This document shows, in pieces, positions 7,750 through 13,411 of a DNA stretch of 64,000 bases; the first letter of the stretch is position 1; every line of letters begins with the position of its first letter. Position numbers and translations under genes: made by a program. The stretch lies in the sequence record PZ171033.1. The stretch is one strand, 5' to 3'. The stretch is from a phage. The notes under the pieces are model-generated. The model did not search any database. It was not told the origin of the DNA and saw nothing but the letters and a program-made list of their open reading frames with translations.

Positions 7750-8553
7750 ATGTCATTGTTCAGTAATCTGAAAGAAAAAACCAAAAACGTTGAAGCTGCT
7801 AAAGACTCCCTGGGTGGGGGTGGTTTCGGTGCAAAAGAAACCGATATCTACACCGGTAATGTAAAAGTAGCTTACGTAGGTAAAGCTGACTCTGGTGCAG
7901 ACTGGATGCAGTTAATCATTGATGACTTGAAGAACTCTGATGGCGTACCTGCCGGTGAGTTCCGTGCACAGGTGTACTTCACTTCTGGTAATGCTAAAGG
8001 CAACAAGCCGACTTACGAGAAGAACGGTAAAGAATACTTCCTGCCTGGCTACACTGTCATTAATGACATGATGCTGATGGCTACTGGTACTGAACTGCCT
8101 GAAGCAGACTTCGAAGAAAAGATTGTTAAAGTCTATGACTTCGATGCTAAAGCGGAAGTTAATAAATCAGTCATGGTTCCAGTTGATCTGTTAAACCAGA
8201 CTGTTACCTTCGCTCTGGAAAAAGTTCTGGAATCCAAGCAGGTTAAAGGCGACAACGGTTATGTTGACTCCGGTGAAACCCGTGAAGTAAACGAGATTCA
8301 GAAAGTGTTTCACCCGGAACTGCTGGTCACAGTCGTCGAGGCTCAGGAAGCAGAGAAGGCTGAAAAAGAACTGACCCCAGAACTGGCTGTATTCTATGCA
8401 GCATGGCTGGAAAAGAACAAAGGCAAGACTCGTGACAAGACCAAGAGTTCTGCCGGTGGTAATGGTAAAGGTGGCTTGCCTCCTAAACCAGGTGCAGGTG
8501 CTGGCACGGGTACTGCTCCTGCTGGTGGTAAATCACTGTTCGGTAAACGTTAA
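7750..8553 (+). CDS. single-stranded DNA-binding protein-like
   Basis: 267 aa, size and position match N4 SSB; Gly-rich N- and C-terminal tails; call by synteny, not by motif. Confidence 0.4.
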   Translation: MSLFSNLKEKTKNVEAAKDSLGGGGFGAKETDIYTGNVKVAYVGKADSGADWMQLIIDDLKNSDGVPAGEFRAQVYFTSGNAKGNKPTYEKNGKEYFLPGYTVINDMMLMATGTELPEADFEEKIVKVYDFDAKAEVNKSVMVPVDLLNQTVTFALEKVLESKQVKGDNGYVDSGETREVNEIQKVFHPELLVTVVEAQEAEKAEKELTPELAVFYAAWLEKNKGKTRDKTKSSAGGNGKGGLPPKPGAGAGTGTAPAGGKSLFGKR

Positions 8554-9107
8554 TGAAAATCCCAATTGTCGGTGCAGACATTAGTCTCCGCAATTGGGGT
8601 TTAGCTCGTGGGATGCTGGACATTGAGTCCGGCGTCTTCGAGCAGGTCGAACTTAAACTGGTTCAAACTGAAGTTGACCACAACAAACAAGTTCGAACCA
8701 ACTCCAAAGATATACAAGCCGCTCACGATTTGTTTCTTGGTTGTGAGGAATGGTTACGGTCTGCTAAAGCAGTGTTCGTAGAAGTACCAGTAGGCTCTCA
8801 GTCTGCTAACGGTATGAAATCCTATGGTGTATGCATAGGATTAATCGGTGCATTTCATGCATTGGGTTGTCCAATCTTTGAAGTATCCCCAATTGAAAAC
8901 AAACTTGCACTGGTCGGTGATAAAACTGCATCCAAAGACACGATGATCCGTGCTGCTCATGCCATCTATCCCGAAGCCAACTGGCTCACGGATAAGAAAG
9001 GCAAACTTCTGAATAAGAATGAGCACTTAGCAGATGCAATCGGTGCAATCCATGCTGGTGTAAATCTCCCAGCTTTCCAGAACCTCATTAAGTTATTAAA
9101 GGCGTAA
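8553..9107 (+). CDS. RuvC-like Holliday junction resolvase
   Basis: N-terminal IVGADIS and C-terminal HLADAIGAIHAG resemble RuvC catalytic motifs; ATG overlaps upstream stop. Confidence 0.5.
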   Translation: MKIPIVGADISLRNWGLARGMLDIESGVFEQVELKLVQTEVDHNKQVRTNSKDIQAAHDLFLGCEEWLRSAKAVFVEVPVGSQSANGMKSYGVCIGLIGAFHALGCPIFEVSPIENKLALVGDKTASKDTMIRAAHAIYPEANWLTDKKGKLLNKNEHLADAIGAIHAGVNLPAFQNLIKLLKA

Positions 9108-9561: not shown

Positions 9562-10282
9562 TCTGGTAGGTGGCTCAGAAGCTGCTGCTATTTGTGGTAG
9601 TGTTCGTAATTCTGATGCTATTGCTTATCAGGATTCTGGACGTGTCGGCTCCATACATAGCATTTATCATCACTGTACTTATACTTTGGAAACTCAGTGA
9701 TAAAAACGGTGGTGACAAGCCGCCAGAGTAACAACAACAACCGAACCAGTGGACTTTAATACTCTCCGAAGTCCACAGGTTCAATCTAAACTAAGCGGAA
9801 AAGTTAGCTTTTTCTTGGGTGTAGAACCTGTTGAAGGAAACAAAGAATTTCACATTGAATAGTTAATATCGTAAAGGGTTCTGTTAGAATCCTTTGAGAT
9901 AGGAACTCCTATCATAACTATTCTTAACTTAATCTTTGCCGTATGGCACTGACGCTAGGGGTGGCCCCCCATCCGTCAGGTAGACTATTTTAAGAATGGG
10001 TTATCACAGCAAATGTAAAGCAACATTCGGGTTAATCAATGGCCTCTCCCTATAGGGGCCATTTCTGAATCTTAGGCTATATCCCAAAGGTTAGTATCTT
10101 TGGGATAAGGCTTCAGATCTCTTATCAACTAACGCTCATGTTGAGCATTCTACTCACACAAGCCCCTATATGGGCTGGGTTAAATGTCGGATAGCATAGC
10201 TACCTACAGCATCGAGATGTTAGGTCTTACATGTAATATAGGGTATAAAGGGAGGACTCGTCCCCTCCCTCCTATTATAATG

Positions 10283-10352
10283 GTCGGGGTAGCACGTAGG
10301 CATGTGCGGATGGTCGCTACTTCCCTCGCTGGTTCGAATCCAGCCCCCGACT
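10283..10352 (+). tRNA. tRNA-like gene (possible pseudo-tRNA)
   Basis: 7-bp acceptor GTCGGGG/CCCCGAC, U8A9, D-arm GCAC-GTAGGCAT-GTGC, T-arm GCTGG-TTCGAAT-CCAGC; anticodon arm imperfect by eye. Confidence 0.4.
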
Positions 10353-10903
10353 TACTGACATCCTATCAATGAGTACATTAGGCTAACGTGCGGAGGTTTA
10401 CACTGTAGCCGGTGTAGGTGGAGAAGACGGCAGGGTAGCTACCTGTGCTTAGTGTACTCTTTGATAGTTTTCGTAAGCGATTATGCGGTTTTTTAGAAAC
10501 GAACCAATAACATAAATGCAAACGATGATGTTGTTCTGATGGCGGCGTAATAGCCTGTAAGTCAGCAAGGTCTTCCGACTCCTTGTAAGCAAATTCGGCG
10601 CAGTGGCCCGCTGTGATTAATAATGGGCACACAACAGGTAAGAGCATTTAGGCTACTGAGAAATCATCCGAGGCAATCAGACCTATCTTCTGTTAAGTGC
10701 TCTTTCCGTTGTGGTGAATGCGCAGGCTGATGCGCAGTGGGACGTGGCTGACTCACGAGGATGGCTCAAGCGAATAAGCAAGCTCGACGCCGCCGAATAA
10801 GCGCCTTATGCCGGAGATCAGCACCGGCCACCACAACAAGTCCAGACGATATCTGAGTGACTATAAAAACAGATGGAGCCAGGTGGAATCCCTGGCAACT
10901 AAT

Positions 10904-10969
10904 TCCGGTGTAGGTACTAGTGTCGTGCACGGCATGAGCATTCTGGTTCGAGTCCAGACGCCGGAACCA
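10904..10969 (+). tRNA. short tRNA-like module ending in encoded CCA
   Basis: T-arm TCTGG-TTCGAGT-CCAGA, acceptor TCCGGTG/CGCCGGA, discriminator A plus CCA; too short for a canonical tRNA. Confidence 0.3.
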
Positions 10970-10971
10970 AT

Positions 10972-11095
10972 TATCAGTTGCACGAGATGGCTTGACATGT
11001 TCAAGTTTGGACTAAGTGTGACACCGCTAGATTGGAGGGCTGCTGCGGTAAGCTATAGACTCCAACCGGAGGTTCGAATCCTTCACTGATAACCA
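10972..11095 (+). ncRNA. oversized tRNA-like RNA (124 nt) ending in encoded CCA
   Basis: Acceptor TATCAGT (10972) pairs with ACTGATA (11085) right after T-arm GGAGG-TTCGAAT-CCTTC; ~50 nt of extra internal sequence. Confidence 0.3.
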
Positions 11096-11177
11096 ATTCA
11101 AAGTAGCATTGCACTAACCCATCCCGGAGTTCAAAGGCCAAACATGGAGCAGTGCTACTCTGAATTAGAAGAATTAT

Positions 11178-11287
11178 GGTGGGTCTGGTGAAGTAGATAG
11201 GGTTCGATTCCCTCCGGTAGAGTAATCTACTAGCGTGCTTGGTGCACGAATAAGACTTAATACTGGTGGTTCAATTCCATCCCCCAC
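11178..11287 (+). ncRNA. oversized tRNA-like RNA (~110 nt)
   Basis: T-arm GGTGG-TTCAATT-CCATC followed by CCCCACT pairing with GGTGGG at 11178; contains a second internal GGTTCGATTCC T-loop-like motif. Confidence 0.25.
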
Positions 11288-11732
11288 TGCCTATTTGAGG
11301 TGTAACAGTTAAATCCAGTTGCCGGAAGTGCTATTCTAGATACGCTGCCAATGTGTGAACGGTAAGGCTGTACAGGACTCGGACTCCCACCTCAAACCAA
11401 AGTCGCCAGATACTTATGGCAAACGGGTAGTAACGAACTAGTCATTCGTCAAACGCCCACCCTATTATGAGTCAGCAAGAACGCCTTCATTTAAACTTAA
11501 ACAAAAAAGCTTAACGCAATAATTATGTAGGGGTATGTAAGGATTGCGAAGAAGGAGCCAGTTAAAGTCTGGCATGACTCACCTAATTGAGGCTGTACTT
11601 ATGTTCTACAGTAGGTGCACAACACTGGGCTGCTACACCCAGAGGTACAGCCTCACCCTATTATGGGTAGCCTATACTAGTTATAGGGCAGATAATCTGT
11701 GGCAGTGTAAGGCTGCACTACCCTTTCATTAA

Positions 11733-11808
11733 TACCCGGTAGGCTTAGTGGTAAAGCCCCACTAGTAAACCAACTAGGACGCAGGTTCGAATCCTGTCCG
11801 GGTAGCCA
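11733..11808 (+). tRNA. tRNA-like gene with encoded CCA
   Basis: Acceptor TACCCGG/CCGGGTA, U8A9, D-arm GGCT-TAGTGGTAA-AGCC, T-arm GCAGG-TTCGAAT-CCTGT, G then CCA; anticodon arm atypical (6-nt loop by eye). Confidence 0.5.
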
Positions 11809-11813
11809 TTTAT

Positions 11814-11898
11814 GCCCACTTAGCTCAGTGGTAGAGCGCAGGAAAGCTTCGAGAGAACAAGGTGTCTGTGGTCACTGGTTCAAATCCAGTAGTGGGTA
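11814..11898 (+). tRNA. tRNA-like gene, long-arm (class II-like) length
   Basis: Canonical D-arm GCTCAGTGGTAGAGC, T-arm ACTGG-TTCAAAT-CCAGT, acceptor GCCCACT/AGTGGGT; 36-nt anticodon/variable region does not fold canonically by eye. Confidence 0.45.
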
Positions 11899-12213
11899 CT
11901 TATTTGCTGCAATATTCCCATAGGGAATGGTGTCGTATACGCCACCTAGTTTCTGGTGAAACTCCAGATGCAGCAATCCATTCAGCAGTAACATAGTCCT
12001 GATTGCATTGCACTCTAAAGACAACACTGGTAAGACAGTCCAGTGGCTGCTATTGTATTGTTATTCCCCTCGACGGGAATTTCGCTAGTGAAGGTAACAC
12101 TTAAAAATCCAAACCCACGTCTTACTGCTATCGGGCTATCAACCCACAGTCGCTTAACACACTAGTGGTAGTAGTTTGACGACCTAGCCTCGTTAGCTGC
12201 GTTAAAGCTACTA

Positions 12214-12249
12214 AGTCCCCTAGAGGGGCGGCTCTAGGGGACTTTTTTA
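12214..12249 (+). terminator. rho-independent terminator
   Basis: 12-bp stem AGTCCCCTAGAG/CTCTAGGGGACT then TTTTTTATTT. Confidence 0.7.
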
Positions 12250-12250
12250 T

Positions 12251-12436
12251 TTGAGTATTAATAGCCGGATAATCAATATGATTGACCTAATCTCAACCCC
12301 GTATGCCTATGAGGTAACGGACAACCGAGGGCATAAGTACTTGGTATTTGCAGGTAGCGTAGCCTATAACAACGCAGTCATGTTTAAGTACAAACTCAAA
12401 CCACTCTATGAGGCTAATAATGGCAACAGTAAGTAA
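12251..12436 (+). CDS. hypothetical protein
   Basis: 61-aa ORF immediately after terminator 12214-12249. Confidence 0.4.
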   Translation: MSINSRIINMIDLISTPYAYEVTDNRGHKYLVFAGSVAYNNAVMFKYKLKPLYEANNGNSK

Positions 12437-12800
12437 AGAAGCAATCGAAGCTAAGATTAAGAGCGTCTACTATTTCAATGGAGCGGATGCAGTGAAGTCT
12501 GCATTCGTTGACCCATCTGCACTACCGGCAGATGATTTGGCTAACCTGGGTCTGGTAACCTATTGTGTAATCATTCTGGAAAACAACTTTAAAGTTGAAG
12601 GTGTATCTGCTTGCGTAGACCCAACTATCTATGATGAACAGAAGGGTCGTCAATATGCATATGAAAATGCATTCAATAAGATTTGGGAATTAGAGGGTTA
12701 CCTACTACGTCAGGCACTGCACGAGAAAGAAGAGACTGCTAAAGCTCTGGCTTCCTTTGCAGAAAACAATACCTGTGATGGTGGTGGTTGTACAATCTGA
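12408..12800 (+). CDS. phage gp49-like family protein
   Basis: ~130 aa; position just upstream of the virion RNAP gene matches N4 gp49; motif YCVIILENNFKVEGVSACVDPTIYDEQKGRQYAYENAF. Confidence 0.45.
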   Translation: MRLIMATVSKEAIEAKIKSVYYFNGADAVKSAFVDPSALPADDLANLGLVTYCVIILENNFKVEGVSACVDPTIYDEQKGRQYAYENAFNKIWELEGYLLRQALHEKEETAKALASFAENNTCDGGGCTI

Positions 12801-12919: not shown

Positions 12920-13411
12920 ATGTCAGAAGAAATTAAAGTCCATTTCACCAACTACATTGGAACCAAGTGTGTAAATGGATTCCGGATGAACAAGGAAACA
13001 TATTGCAAACTCCGTGGCTGGGATGTGCCTGCTAATGAAGACCCATTAGAAGTAGGTTACTTAGTAGAATACCCAGATTCTAAACCTAACCATGAACAAT
13101 TCCGTGGTTATATTAGCTGGTCACCAAGGGCTGCATTTGAAGCTGCATATTGTGATGTAGATAAGGGTTGTACTTTTGGTCACGCAGTAGAACTTATAAA
13201 ACTGGGTCACAGACTGACCCGTAAAGGCTGGAACGGTAAGGGAATGTATATTACCCTAGTATCTGGTGAAAATTGGGCTATGGATAAACATGAGAATACC
13301 GTATGTGAGAAACGGGATTGGTTGGGCATCAAAACTGTTGATGACCAGTTTATGCCTTGGGTTCCTTCCCAATCGGATGTATTAGCTGAAGATTGGGTAT
13401 TAGCTCAGTAA
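12920..13411 (+). CDS. DUF2829-like protein (possible Tad2-type anti-defence sponge) with N-terminal extension
   Basis: C-terminal HAVELIKLGHRLTRKGWNGKGMY...WVPSQSDVLAEDWVL resembles the DUF2829 signature; GAGG RBS; terminator follows. Confidence 0.4.
   Translation: MSEEIKVHFTNYIGTKCVNGFRMNKETYCKLRGWDVPANEDPLEVGYLVEYPDSKPNHEQFRGYISWSPRAAFEAAYCDVDKGCTFGHAVELIKLGHRLTRKGWNGKGMYITLVSGENWAMDKHENTVCEKRDWLGIKTVDDQFMPWVPSQSDVLAEDWVLAQ

Follow-up and report, generated by a model that had tools for sequence, protein, structure and literature searches.

The 64,000-nucleotide (nt) stretch of phage DNA analysed here (record PZ171033.1; hereafter the window) belongs to an N4-like coliphage of the genus Gamaleyavirus (G7C/N4-like), with its best DNA matches in phages 24-32N, St11Ph5, Bp4, EC1-UPM and G7C (85–96% identity). 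We describe a cluster of hairpins that lies directly 3' of the homologues of N4 gp45 (SSB), gp46 (RuvC-like) and gp47. The structured stretch runs continuously on the + strand from 9866 to 10281 and forms the 5' head of an array of about 2.4 kb (roughly 9740–12250) that is without a credible open reading frame (ORF). The rest of this ORF-free RNA array (10282–12247) comprises a tRNA-like cassette (10282–10353), a module resembling transfer-messenger RNA (tmRNA) with weak matches to tmRNA families (about 10356–10640), tRNA-like minihelices with CCA ends (10904–10969 and 10972–11097), two tRNAs (11733–11805 and 11814–11898) and a strong intrinsic terminator with a perfect stem of 13 base pairs (bp) that closes the array (12213–12247), all on the + strand.

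All five hairpins that an earlier note had described in the cluster were seen on reading the sequence, at or within 1–2 nt of where it had placed them. The arms of hairpin 1, AAAGGGTTC (9873–9881) and GAATCCTTT (9887–9895), form 9 bp with one G.T. Hairpin 2 pairs CTGACG (9949–9954) with CGTCAG (9974–9979) and encloses GGGG (9958–9961), TGG and CCCC (9965–9968). Hairpin 3 has the arms AATGGCCTCT (10038–10047) and AGGGGCCATT (10054–10063), hairpin 4 is a perfect 10-bp stem of TATCCCAAAG (10080–10089) and CTTTGGGATA (10098–10107), and hairpin 5 pairs AGCCC (10161–10165) with GGGCT (10172–10176). A repeat search recovered the three longest of them. At least six further helices, absent from that note, lie in the same stretch: GAUAGG/CCUAUC (9898–9913), UGCC-GUAU-GGCA (9937–9948), GAUAAGG/UCUUAUC (10104–10126), GCUCA/UGAGC (10134–10146), GGAUAGC/GCUACC (10189–10204) and AGGGAGG/CCUCCCU (10249–10270).

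Folded as RNA, 9860–10290 gave −151.3 kcal/mol versus −115.2 ± 4.8 for 100 dinucleotide shuffles, none of which folded as well (z = −7.5); the minus strand gave z = −6.3. When 150-nt windows were slid across 7.5–14.6 kb, the longest run of low z-values was 9750–10274 (−1.8 to −3.7), in contrast to the flanking genes and to the tRNA-like part of the array. The hairpin cluster exceeds chance. It is also not coding: there is no ORF of at least 30 amino acids on either strand of 9863–10183, and relatives differ within the cluster by indels of 1, 6, 7 and 23 nt, which do not keep to multiples of three. In GenBank records the modules described below are unannotated or lie under short 'hypothetical protein' coding sequences (L001 3971–4141, which is G7C gp47.2; L002 4473–4595, PhAPEC5_51.1; L007 3550–3672; L006 3424–3657). 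These small coding sequences (G7C, PhAPEC5/7, 24-32N) shift position between phages and are probably mis-annotations.

Modules B and A+D

The cluster resolves into modules that were compared across three lineages, namely Gamaleyavirus, the phiEco32-like phages (Gordonclarkvirinae) and the 7-11-like phages (Grimontviridae). Module B (9914–10010, + strand; alignments A3 and A6) is a five-helix RNA that includes hairpin 2; its structure was obtained with RNAalifold and the five helices were checked by hand. The closing helix P1 pairs UAACC with GGUUA (9915–9919/9999–10003), P2 is AU-rich (CUUAA/UUAAG; 9921–9927/9990–9996), P3 (9937–9940/9945–9948) presents a GUAU loop in the pattern NCC-GUAU-GGN, P4 (CUGACG 9949–9954/CGUCAG 9974–9979) is the stem of hairpin 2, and the apical helix P5 (GGGG/CCCC, 9958–9968) is a variable hairpin. 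The conserved motifs are GCUAGGG, CAUCCG and GGUUAUC.

In a MAFFT alignment of 11 B sequences, 89.7% of the cells were paired (29–47% in slid controls), seven pairs carried double changes and no shuffle reached the covariation score. The covariance model R1, built from this alignment with the window sequence in the training set, recovered B in every genome of the three lineages with 99–131 bits; its match to 9912–10016 of the window (100.2 bits, E = 9e-23) is that of a training member and is thus partly by construction. With 37 distinct sequences (A6, fitted to the model structure), 95.7% of the cells were paired, compensatory double changes were present in 17 of the 25 pairs, and all five measures beat 500 of 500 shuffles, the slid controls being 31–47% paired. 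P4 was paired in 100% of cells with four covarying pairs (CUGACG/CGUCAG, CCGAUG/CGUCGG, UCGGUG/CGCCGA or CACCG/CGGUG). The apical hairpin varies freely in sequence and is retained as a hairpin, while the internal loop GCUAGGG(A/C)GAG...CUC(G/A)AACAUCCG and the 3' GGUUAUC are essentially invariant. All the elements by which we propose to define family B are found in the window: P1 UAAC(C)/(G)GUUA, an AU-rich P2, P3 with a GUAU or AUAU loop, a 6-bp P4, the internal loop GCUAGGG...(A)CAUCCG and a variable apical hairpin. Gordonclarkvirinae carry a second, divergent B paralogue that scores 27–37 bits with R1 (L054 439–535 and, on the minus strand, L043 8116–8226, L060 11346–11441 and L038 3530–3583). 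Its P3 is GGC-AUAU-GCC and its P4 CACCG/CGGUG, yet the GCUAGGG...AACAUCCG core is the same. A copy of an AUAGCCC...GGGCUAU hairpin lies 5' of this paralogue.

The second family, A+D, is one contiguous RNA of about 230 nt elsewhere and is split in the window into 9873–9913 and 10104–10281, modules B and C lying between H1/H2a and H2b. H1 (9873–9895, + strand; AAAGGGUUC-UGUUA-GAAUCCUUU) is hairpin 1 and makes the 5' hairpin of the A+D RNA. Among its 14 variants from the three lineages, G.U, A-U and G-C are exchanged at stem positions 5 and 6 with the stem kept, and five different loops occur (UGUUA, UGUCA, UGUAA, UUACGA and UUCG). H2 is duplicated in Gamaleyavirus, with one copy on each side of the B+C block. 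The copy 5' of module B, H2a (9898–9913, + strand; GAUAGG-AACU-CCUAUC), is short-looped and its stem is identical to that of the Gordonclarkvirinae H2 (GAUAGGA/UCCUAUC); the copy 5' of module D, H2b (10104–10126, + strand; GAUAAGG-CUUCAGAUC-UCUUAUC), has seven pairs, 98.9% pairing and three double-change pairs (for example A-U to G-C in five sequences).

In the core of module D (10127–10223, + strand), the closing helix CUAAC (10129–10133)/GUUAG (10219–10223) surrounds three hairpins, H3 (GCUCA/UGAGC, 10134–10146), H4, which is hairpin 5 (AGCCC/GGGCU, 10161–10176), and H5 (GGAUAGC/GCUACC, 10189–10204). All 13 sequences compared have an identical closing helix, which RNAalifold and most folds of single sequences also predict. 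H3, judged from single-sequence folds only as MAFFT mis-registers its columns, is swapped for unrelated self-complementary sequence in phiEco32 (GUAAC..GUUAC) and in phage 7-11 (GUCACC-GAAA-GGUGAC). H4 has two covarying pairs and is missing in IME11, G7C and pSb-1; its variant GCCCACUAAGGGGGCGGG is common to PhAPEC5/7 and phiEco32. The near-invariant motif UGUUAGGUCUUACAUG (10218–10233, + strand) contributes its 5' part to the closing helix, and its GUCUUACAUG part is predicted to be single-stranded. Three Kuravirus sequences (SU10, NJ01 and O18-011) have an A for a G in this motif, the sole change; Gamaleyavirus, IME267, phiEco32 and Salmonella phage 7-11 share it unaltered.

The terminal hairpin of D (10239–10281, + strand) consists of AGGGAGG-ACUCGUCC-CCUCCCU within UAGG/CCUA, followed by UUAUAAU; it is 90.9% paired with two covarying pairs (GGGAGG/CCUCCC versus GGCGG/CCGCC). 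H2, H4 and the terminal hairpin combined are 95.2% paired with seven double-change pairs, and 0 of 500 shuffles reached the covariation score. The window holds every feature of the proposed A+D family, that is H1, H2, CUAAC/GUUAG around two or three hairpins, UGUUAGGUCUUACAUG and a terminal hairpin GGGAGG-(A/U)UCGUCC-CCUCCC.

Hairpin 3 (10038–10063, + strand; AAUGGCCUCU-CCCUAU-AGGGGCCAUU, then UCUGAAUCUU) occupies the position where the B RNA has an intrinsic terminator in other lineages (IME267, SU10 and SE131 were compared). Its stem is near-invariant in Gamaleyavirus, the sole stem change being G.U to A-U in pSb-1, and loop indels occur. Hairpin 4 (10080–10107, + strand; UAUCCCAAAG-GUUAGUAU-CUUUGGGAUA) was seen only in Gamaleyavirus, with loop substitutions in EC1-UPM and 24-32N. 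It can be extended to 21-nt arms (10069–10118) in competition with H2b. RNase III sites of the T7 early-mRNA type have about 20 bp or more of near-continuous duplex, often with an internal loop; in the cluster only this composite, with 81% complementarity, has arms of such a length, and the 3' one overlaps the covarying H2b. Covariation offers no test for hairpins 3 and 4 because both are Gamaleyavirus-specific and nearly invariant.

Distribution, strand and transcript ends

The cluster is strongly conserved within the genus. The segment 9919–10110 is 95–99% identical in 52 of 56 Gamaleyavirus records and 90–95% identical in the other four, and all 56 Gamaleyavirus matches in the phage collection cover at least 80% of the query. 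Modules A, B and C (9866–10105) are 95–97% identical to seven relatives, which equals the best-conserved neighbouring gene, gp46 (95–98%), and is above SSB (90–95%) and gp47 (80–88%). The few substitutions within Gamaleyavirus fall in loops or change G.U to A-U, apart from one stem mismatch in IME11. From 10134 on the variability is greater, and whole hairpins are replaced or lost. The earlier note had named a lack of conserved stems in related phages as grounds for abandoning its view; related phages do keep the stems, with covariation in hairpins 1, 2 and 5.

Distant BLAST matches showed how the modules are arranged elsewhere. Segments 9864–9904 and 10098–10283 of the window are contiguous in an intergenic gap of the Suseptimavirus IME267, contiguous A+D was also found in phiEco32, ECBP2, SU10, NJ01 and O18-011, and a more distant copy lies in Salmonella phage 7-11. 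In Gordonclarkvirinae, module B (9923–10009) is about 2.2 kb away from A+D, and the 7-11-like phages SE131 and pSal-SNUABM-01 carry B as well. In IME267, phiEco32 and 7-11, A+D and B occupy separate intergenic sites. When the IME267 copies were used as queries against the phage collection, A+D matched 156 records and B 103, all of them Gamaleyavirus, Gordonclarkvirinae or 7-11-like. Exact-pattern scans of IMG/VR and of metagenomes placed B in the same three lineages only, the remaining matches being chance hits in coding DNA. Both B and A+D were present in every Gamaleyavirus, Gordonclarkvirinae and 7-11-like genome examined. A blastn search of E. coli genomes gave no match to the modules, which are therefore not host-derived. 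Unrelated phages have exchanged the modules, and sub-modules too, as autonomous units.

The substitutions in the stems interconvert G.U, A-U and G-C on the + strand only, a G.U being an A.C mismatch on the other strand. The B copies of IME267, SU10, pSal-SNUABM-01 and SE131 have a terminator 3' of them on the + strand, GGCUCUC-UUAG-GAGAGUCC-U6. In Gordonclarkvirinae and 7-11, A+D ends in a hairpin with a U-rich tail, the sequence after GGGAGG/CCUCCC being CCCCCUAUUUUAUU (also given as CCUAUUUUAUU) in IME267 and CCCUAUUUUAAAA in 7-11. These U-tracts are replaced by CCUAUUAUAAU or AUUUCUGAAUC (or GAC) in all Gamaleyavirus sequences. Modules, tRNAs and the terminator of the array all have the same orientation. 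The G.U wobbles, the terminators of the homologues and the co-oriented tRNAs agree in indicating + strand RNA, which argues against an origin or a promoter for the N4 virion RNA polymerase (vRNAP). Of the earlier interpretation, the part that survives is that the hairpins are RNA-level structures and not ordinary terminators, their role in processing or protein binding being putative; the origin that it had also allowed for is disfavoured by the strand bias of the G.U pairs and by the + strand terminators 3' of the homologues. Its remark that no clear U-tract follows the hairpins is borne out by a terminator scan of the window, which flagged none of the five.

The cluster was also compared with known RNA classes. 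A tRNA has a cloverleaf with a T-arm (GGUUCGAAUCC-type loop) and an acceptor stem, and 9866–10281 was blank for such elements in ARAGORN and in Rfam at E ≤ 10; the tRNA-like elements called by these programs start only at 10282. ARAGORN found no tmRNA in 9866–10281. No Rfam 15 family, whether of ribozymes, riboswitches, 6S, SRP, tmRNA or small RNAs, reached its gathering threshold in the hairpin cluster, and at E ≤ 10 the only hit was a spurious one to mir-9413 (E = 2.3; 19 bits, the gathering score being 100). An intrinsic terminator is a GC-rich stem-loop with a U run directly after it; the scan called no such element in 9866–10281, whereas the hairpin 3' of the B homologues (IME267, SU10 and SE131) and that at 12213–12247 are of this form.

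Several resemblances were considered by eye and dropped: a likeness to 5S rRNA loop E/helix IV, for which there was no Rfam 5S match; the Type I-F CRISPR repeat hairpin (GCCGUAU-GGC), as the stem is too short and its closing pairs covary away; a K-turn in the internal loop of B, where the G.A positions are not as needed; and a T7-like promoter in CCCTATAGGG. A cis-regulatory leader of one gene was rejected, as the ORFs 3' of A+D in IME267 and 7-11 are unrelated.

The neighbouring array and its surroundings

Directly 3' of the cluster, the cassette at 10282–10355 is called 'tRNA-Ala(cgc)' by ARAGORN, lies below the Rfam tRNA threshold and is a precise unit of about 75 nt. It is carried by Bp4, ECBP1, pSb-1 and the window phage, and is missing from EC1-UPM, IME11, 24-32N, G7C and PhAPEC5/7, where ...CCUAUUAUGACAUCC runs uninterrupted. 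A pseudo-tRNA annotated in the PD205 record maps onto this cassette (10282–10353), outside the hairpins.

The tmRNA-like module (about 10356–10640) has its tag ORF at 10518–10550. Other copies are at L017 6893–6749 on the minus strand, L104 1360–1664 (Escherichia phage EC6), L103 1466–1640 and L105/L106 at about 1460–1700. The layout consists of a long helix with a variable tip, a conserved AUAAAU, a 10-codon tag frame whose stop codon lies in a helix loop, and two H-type pseudoknots 3' of the stop that covary by eye. Weak Rfam tmRNA matches (RF04321; tmRNA_permuted) of 27–34 bits versus a gathering score of 47 recur in the window, EC1-UPM, Bp4, IME11, 24-32N, 7-11, EC6 and ASO78B, and ARAGORN called no tmRNA in any of the tag-module sequences examined. 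The tag of E. coli ssrA is ANDENYALAA; the phage tags read ANDDVVLMAA* (window), ANDDVILMAA*, ANEEAYLMVA* (PhAPEC5/7), ANDNAFRVAA* (7-11), ANDNVFLAVA* (EC6), ANDNTFLAVA* (selz) and, by eye, ANDSEVLMAA* (SilasIsHot). The codons of the terminal Ala-Ala-stop differ between phages. The likeness to ssrA lies in the ANDDVVLMAA-stop tag, the stop in a helix loop and the two pseudoknots. Among the 777 phage records with a match to the tag region are Felixounavirus, Ackermannviridae, siphoviruses and other N4-likes; our literature search found no paper on the module. The hairpin modules A–D are not part of it: the Gordonclarkvirinae loci examined have them but no tag module, and in 7-11 the two are 1.3 kb apart.

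In EC6 the tag module sits inside a tRNA array and is followed by a minihelix CGGGGCG/CGCCUCG-ACCA (L104 1666–1750) with G3.U70 and A73, the alanine identity set. The window minihelices at 10904–10969 and 10972–11097 (UCCGGUG/CGCCGGA and UAUCAGU/ACUGAUA) also have ACCA ends, carry C3-G70 and lack the alanine set; the second (125 nt) has a long insert at the position of the anticodon arm. The adjacent tRNAs at 11733–11805 and 11814–11898 are odd, one having an unreadable anticodon loop and the other 24 nt in the anticodon region versus 11 in the tRNA model. In the relatives IME11, 24-32N and Bp4 there is an intact tRNA-Ile whose anticodon, AAU, is unusual; a tRNA-Cys(ACA) is additionally found in Bp4 and ECBP1.

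A recurring ending of a hairpin, a C-rich stretch and CCUAUUAUG/R was noticed at 10267–10281, 11458–11472 and 11654–11668; a similar terminator tail, CCCUAUUUUAUU, ends the stand-alone homologues, and the form 'hairpin + CCCUAUUAUG' recurs at 11458 and 11654. This suggests that the array was assembled from terminator-ended small-RNA cassettes with weakened terminators, and that transcription runs on to 12247.

Downstream of the array, 12408–12800 encodes a PF13876 protein (Pfam 'N4 Gp49/phage Sf6 gene 66') where related records have the N4 gp48 homologue; it is labelled 'anti-CRISPR protein' in one GenBank relative. The protein encoded at 12920–13411 has a Thoeris anti-defence Tad2-like domain (PF11195, E = 3e-23). 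On the upstream side, two adjacent and very stable hairpins (8557–8643) lie in coding sequence at the start of the gp46 RuvC-like ORF, with the arms AAAUCCCAAUUG.../...CAAUUGGGGUUU and GCUCG.GGGAUGCUGGAC/GUCCGGCGUCUUCGAGC; 8540–8710 folds with z = −5.6, and sliding windows reach z = −6.5 on one strand and −6.8 on the other. A short way 5' of the cluster, after a 53-amino-acid ORF (phrog_19025), a hairpin with 14-nt arms, GAACCAGUGGACUU/AAGUCCACAGGUUC (9743–9782, 93% complementary), is apparently common only to the EC1-UPM/IME11/24-32N subgroup, as judged from BLAST coverage, the hairpin itself being unaligned. G7C carries an HNH homing endonuclease gene, absent from the window, between gp47 and the RNA cluster (L001 3438–3935), and PhAPEC7 has an intron-like insertion in gp44. 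The region is a hotspot of mobile insertions.

Readings of the hairpin cluster

The structures exist, are conserved and covary. We consider that the cluster is a tandem set of + strand non-coding RNA genes or modules, most likely trans-acting stable small RNAs, with a probability of roughly 0.78. On the alignments, these would form two undescribed structured-RNA families of a known general kind, B (about 100 nt) and A+D (about 230 nt), and the modules are not leaders of a particular gene. Family B would be defined by its closing helix, AU-rich helix, GUAU-loop hairpin and long hairpin with the conserved internal loop GCUAGGG...AACAUCCG; family A+D by its two 5' hairpins, the CUAAC/GUUAG multi-hairpin domain, the single-stranded GUCUUACAUG and a terminal hairpin with a C-rich loop. 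Each family would make up a small-RNA gene of its own between other genes in the phiEco32-like and 7-11-like phages. In Gamaleyavirus, B and hairpins 3 and 4 lie between the two 5' hairpins of A+D, flanked by the duplicated H2, and the former terminator tails would have lost their U-tracts; the modules may therefore head one long transcript that extends through the tmRNA-like and tRNA-like elements to 12213–12247. From this precursor, the host tRNA-processing and RNase E machinery would cut them into compact stable RNAs, whose invariant motifs, in loops and single strands, may bind a protein or an RNA of the host or the phage and so let them act in trans. Fixed motifs on a covarying scaffold with free apical loops are compatible with a folded RNA whose surface is kept constant for a partner. 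The neighbours, which in Gamaleyavirus at least are the tmRNA-like module, the odd tRNAs and the Tad2-like gene, suggest a role in translation take-over, tRNA surveillance or counter-defence.

Our literature search returned no description of these RNA elements; transcription studies of phiEco32 lay outside that search. The closest systems are analogues in kind and not relatives. T4 RNA C and RNA D are encoded in the T4 tRNA cluster on the same strand and are cut from shared precursors by host enzymes; to our knowledge, these stable 'species 1 / species 2' RNAs went without an assigned function for decades. They share with the present modules that they are small structured non-tRNA RNAs beside phage tRNA genes. 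The window families, however, have homologues that are independent genes with their own terminators outside tRNA arrays, and they are shared by three podophage families. GOLLD (RF01998) and ROOL (RF03087) are 'ornate' single-unit RNAs of 500–800 nt from Firmicutes and rumen phages, often beside prophage tRNA genes. Elaborate covarying folds, phage association and proximity to tRNA genes are common to both sides, but the window modules are 100–230 nt long, belong to virulent enterobacterial podophages and have no Rfam match. Bacterial Hfq-type small RNAs consist of a seed region, an AU-rich stretch, a GC-rich terminator hairpin and a U-tail. In the phiEco32-like phages, the 3' part of A+D resembles them in having, in this order, the single-stranded GUCUUACAUG, AAUAUUAAUUAAUA, the GGGAGG/CCUCCC hairpin and CCUAUUUUAUU. 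It differs from them in its large structured 5' domain, which is atypical, in the lack of any target found in searches of the window and E. coli, and in the U-tail lost from Gamaleyavirus.

Several points weigh against reading the cluster as small RNAs. No promoter could be assigned, as sigma-70 scan counts equal chance, and the sole sigma-70-like candidate (9863–9890) overlaps H1 and is not conserved in the other lineages. Transcription, RNA ends and stability are what we infer from the DNA. A search of the 64-kb window for an antisense target of UGUUAGGUCUUACAUG returned only the motif itself. The A6 alignment leans towards the structure to which it was fitted, and the closing helix CUAAC/GUUAG never varies, so that covariation neither supports nor refutes it. 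Hairpins 3 and 4 are near-invariant and confined to one genus, so that conservation is what speaks for an RNA role there, and hairpin 4 has the stem mismatch in IME11. The high conservation of modules A to C within Gamaleyavirus could also partly reflect recent horizontal spread and not selection.

A more far-reaching reading is that B and A+D are founders of a new class of counter-defence or translation-hijack RNAs, acting as decoys for a host tRNA, ribosome-rescue or RNA-surveillance factor within a mobile 'RNA island'. The decoys would work with the tmRNA-like module and the odd tRNA-like RNAs and would be swapped among unrelated virulent enterobacterial phages. We regard this as speculative and rather doubtful.

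Slightly less likely still is that the hairpins are cis-acting punctuation, that is RNase E, III or P processing sites or stabilisers of the tRNA-like precursor with no function once cut. The location at the 5' end of a tRNA-like array that needs processing is what this would predict, a hairpin with single-stranded A(A)CUAAC precedes each closing helix, and the 21-nt arms of the composite at 10069–10118 approach the length of an RNase III substrate. But the Gordonclarkvirinae and 7-11-like copies lie between protein genes with no adjoining tRNA-like element, each with its own terminator (B) or U-tailed hairpin (A+D). As stand-alone genes away from tRNA arrays, the modules would therefore be RNA genes in their own right and not mere precursor punctuation. 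In addition, three phage families have the same internal-loop and single-strand motifs without change, an invariance that a cleavage site or protective hairpin would not need, and a five-helix fold with 17 covarying pairs goes far beyond known processing hairpins.

That the hairpins are terminators or attenuators separating the replication genes from the RNA array is very improbable, even though the terminal hairpin of module D and the position of hairpin 3 have U-tracts in other lineages, and hairpin 3 is GC-rich and followed by UUUCU. The terminator scan passed no hairpin in 9866–10281, the former U-tails have been replaced by CCUAUUAUAAU or AUUUCUGAAUC throughout Gamaleyavirus, and this reading leaves the multi-helix covarying folds and the invariant motifs unexplained.

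We give even less credence to a DNA-level element (an origin, a cruciform, an N4-type vRNAP hairpin promoter, or binding sites for SSB or a resolvase). The cluster does lie directly 3' of SSB, the RuvC-like gene and gp47, and its minus strand folds well too (z = −6.3). N4-like phages are also known to use extruded DNA hairpins as promoters (PMC4496689), and the short inverted repeats seen here in an N4-like genome are of a similar appearance. However, the N4 vRNAP early promoter is a DNA hairpin of 5–7 bp with a 3-nt loop (5' G, central purine, 3' A) at the left genome end (PMC4496689). The loops in the cluster are of 4–8 nt except for two of 3 nt, UGG and UGU (CCA and ACA on the other strand), and the position is mid-genome, after gp47; a vRNAP promoter was rejected on these grounds of loop size, loop sequence and position (PMC4496689). 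The stems moreover change through + strand G.U pairs, for which a cruciform or the opposite strand would have A.C, U-tract terminators lie 3' of the homologues on the + strand, and the same modules are found in phiEco32-like and 7-11-like phages, whose replication and transcription machinery is different.

Equally improbable is that the cluster is functionless, made of decayed tRNA remnants or chance palindromes: degenerate tRNA-like elements and cassette-like insertions and deletions do surround it and H1 resembles T-arm sequence (GUUAGAAUCCUU versus GUUCGAAUCCUU), but the stretch equals the most conserved protein gene nearby in its conservation, shows compensatory changes in three phage families, is kept in every one of the 56 Gamaleyavirus matches and contains no tRNA by ARAGORN or Rfam (E ≤ 10). 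The strand-specific compensatory evolution contradicts both the DNA-level and the functionless readings.

Reading the cluster as small RNA modules bears on the biology of these phages in several ways. Phage non-coding RNAs are badly under-annotated, and the present modules are blank or mislabelled in GenBank. Their covariation and exchange between lineages, as judged from sequence comparison, point to a selected and portable function. Phages of all three groups are in use, or have been put forward, as therapeutic agents against E. coli, Shigella and Salmonella, and the modules, being small, deletable and carried by BASEL phages such as Bas96 and Bas86–93, offer a testable entry point. They mark the start of an array whose tmRNA-like module is found in hundreds of phage genomes, and they raise the question of how virulent phages may use structured RNAs beyond tRNAs.

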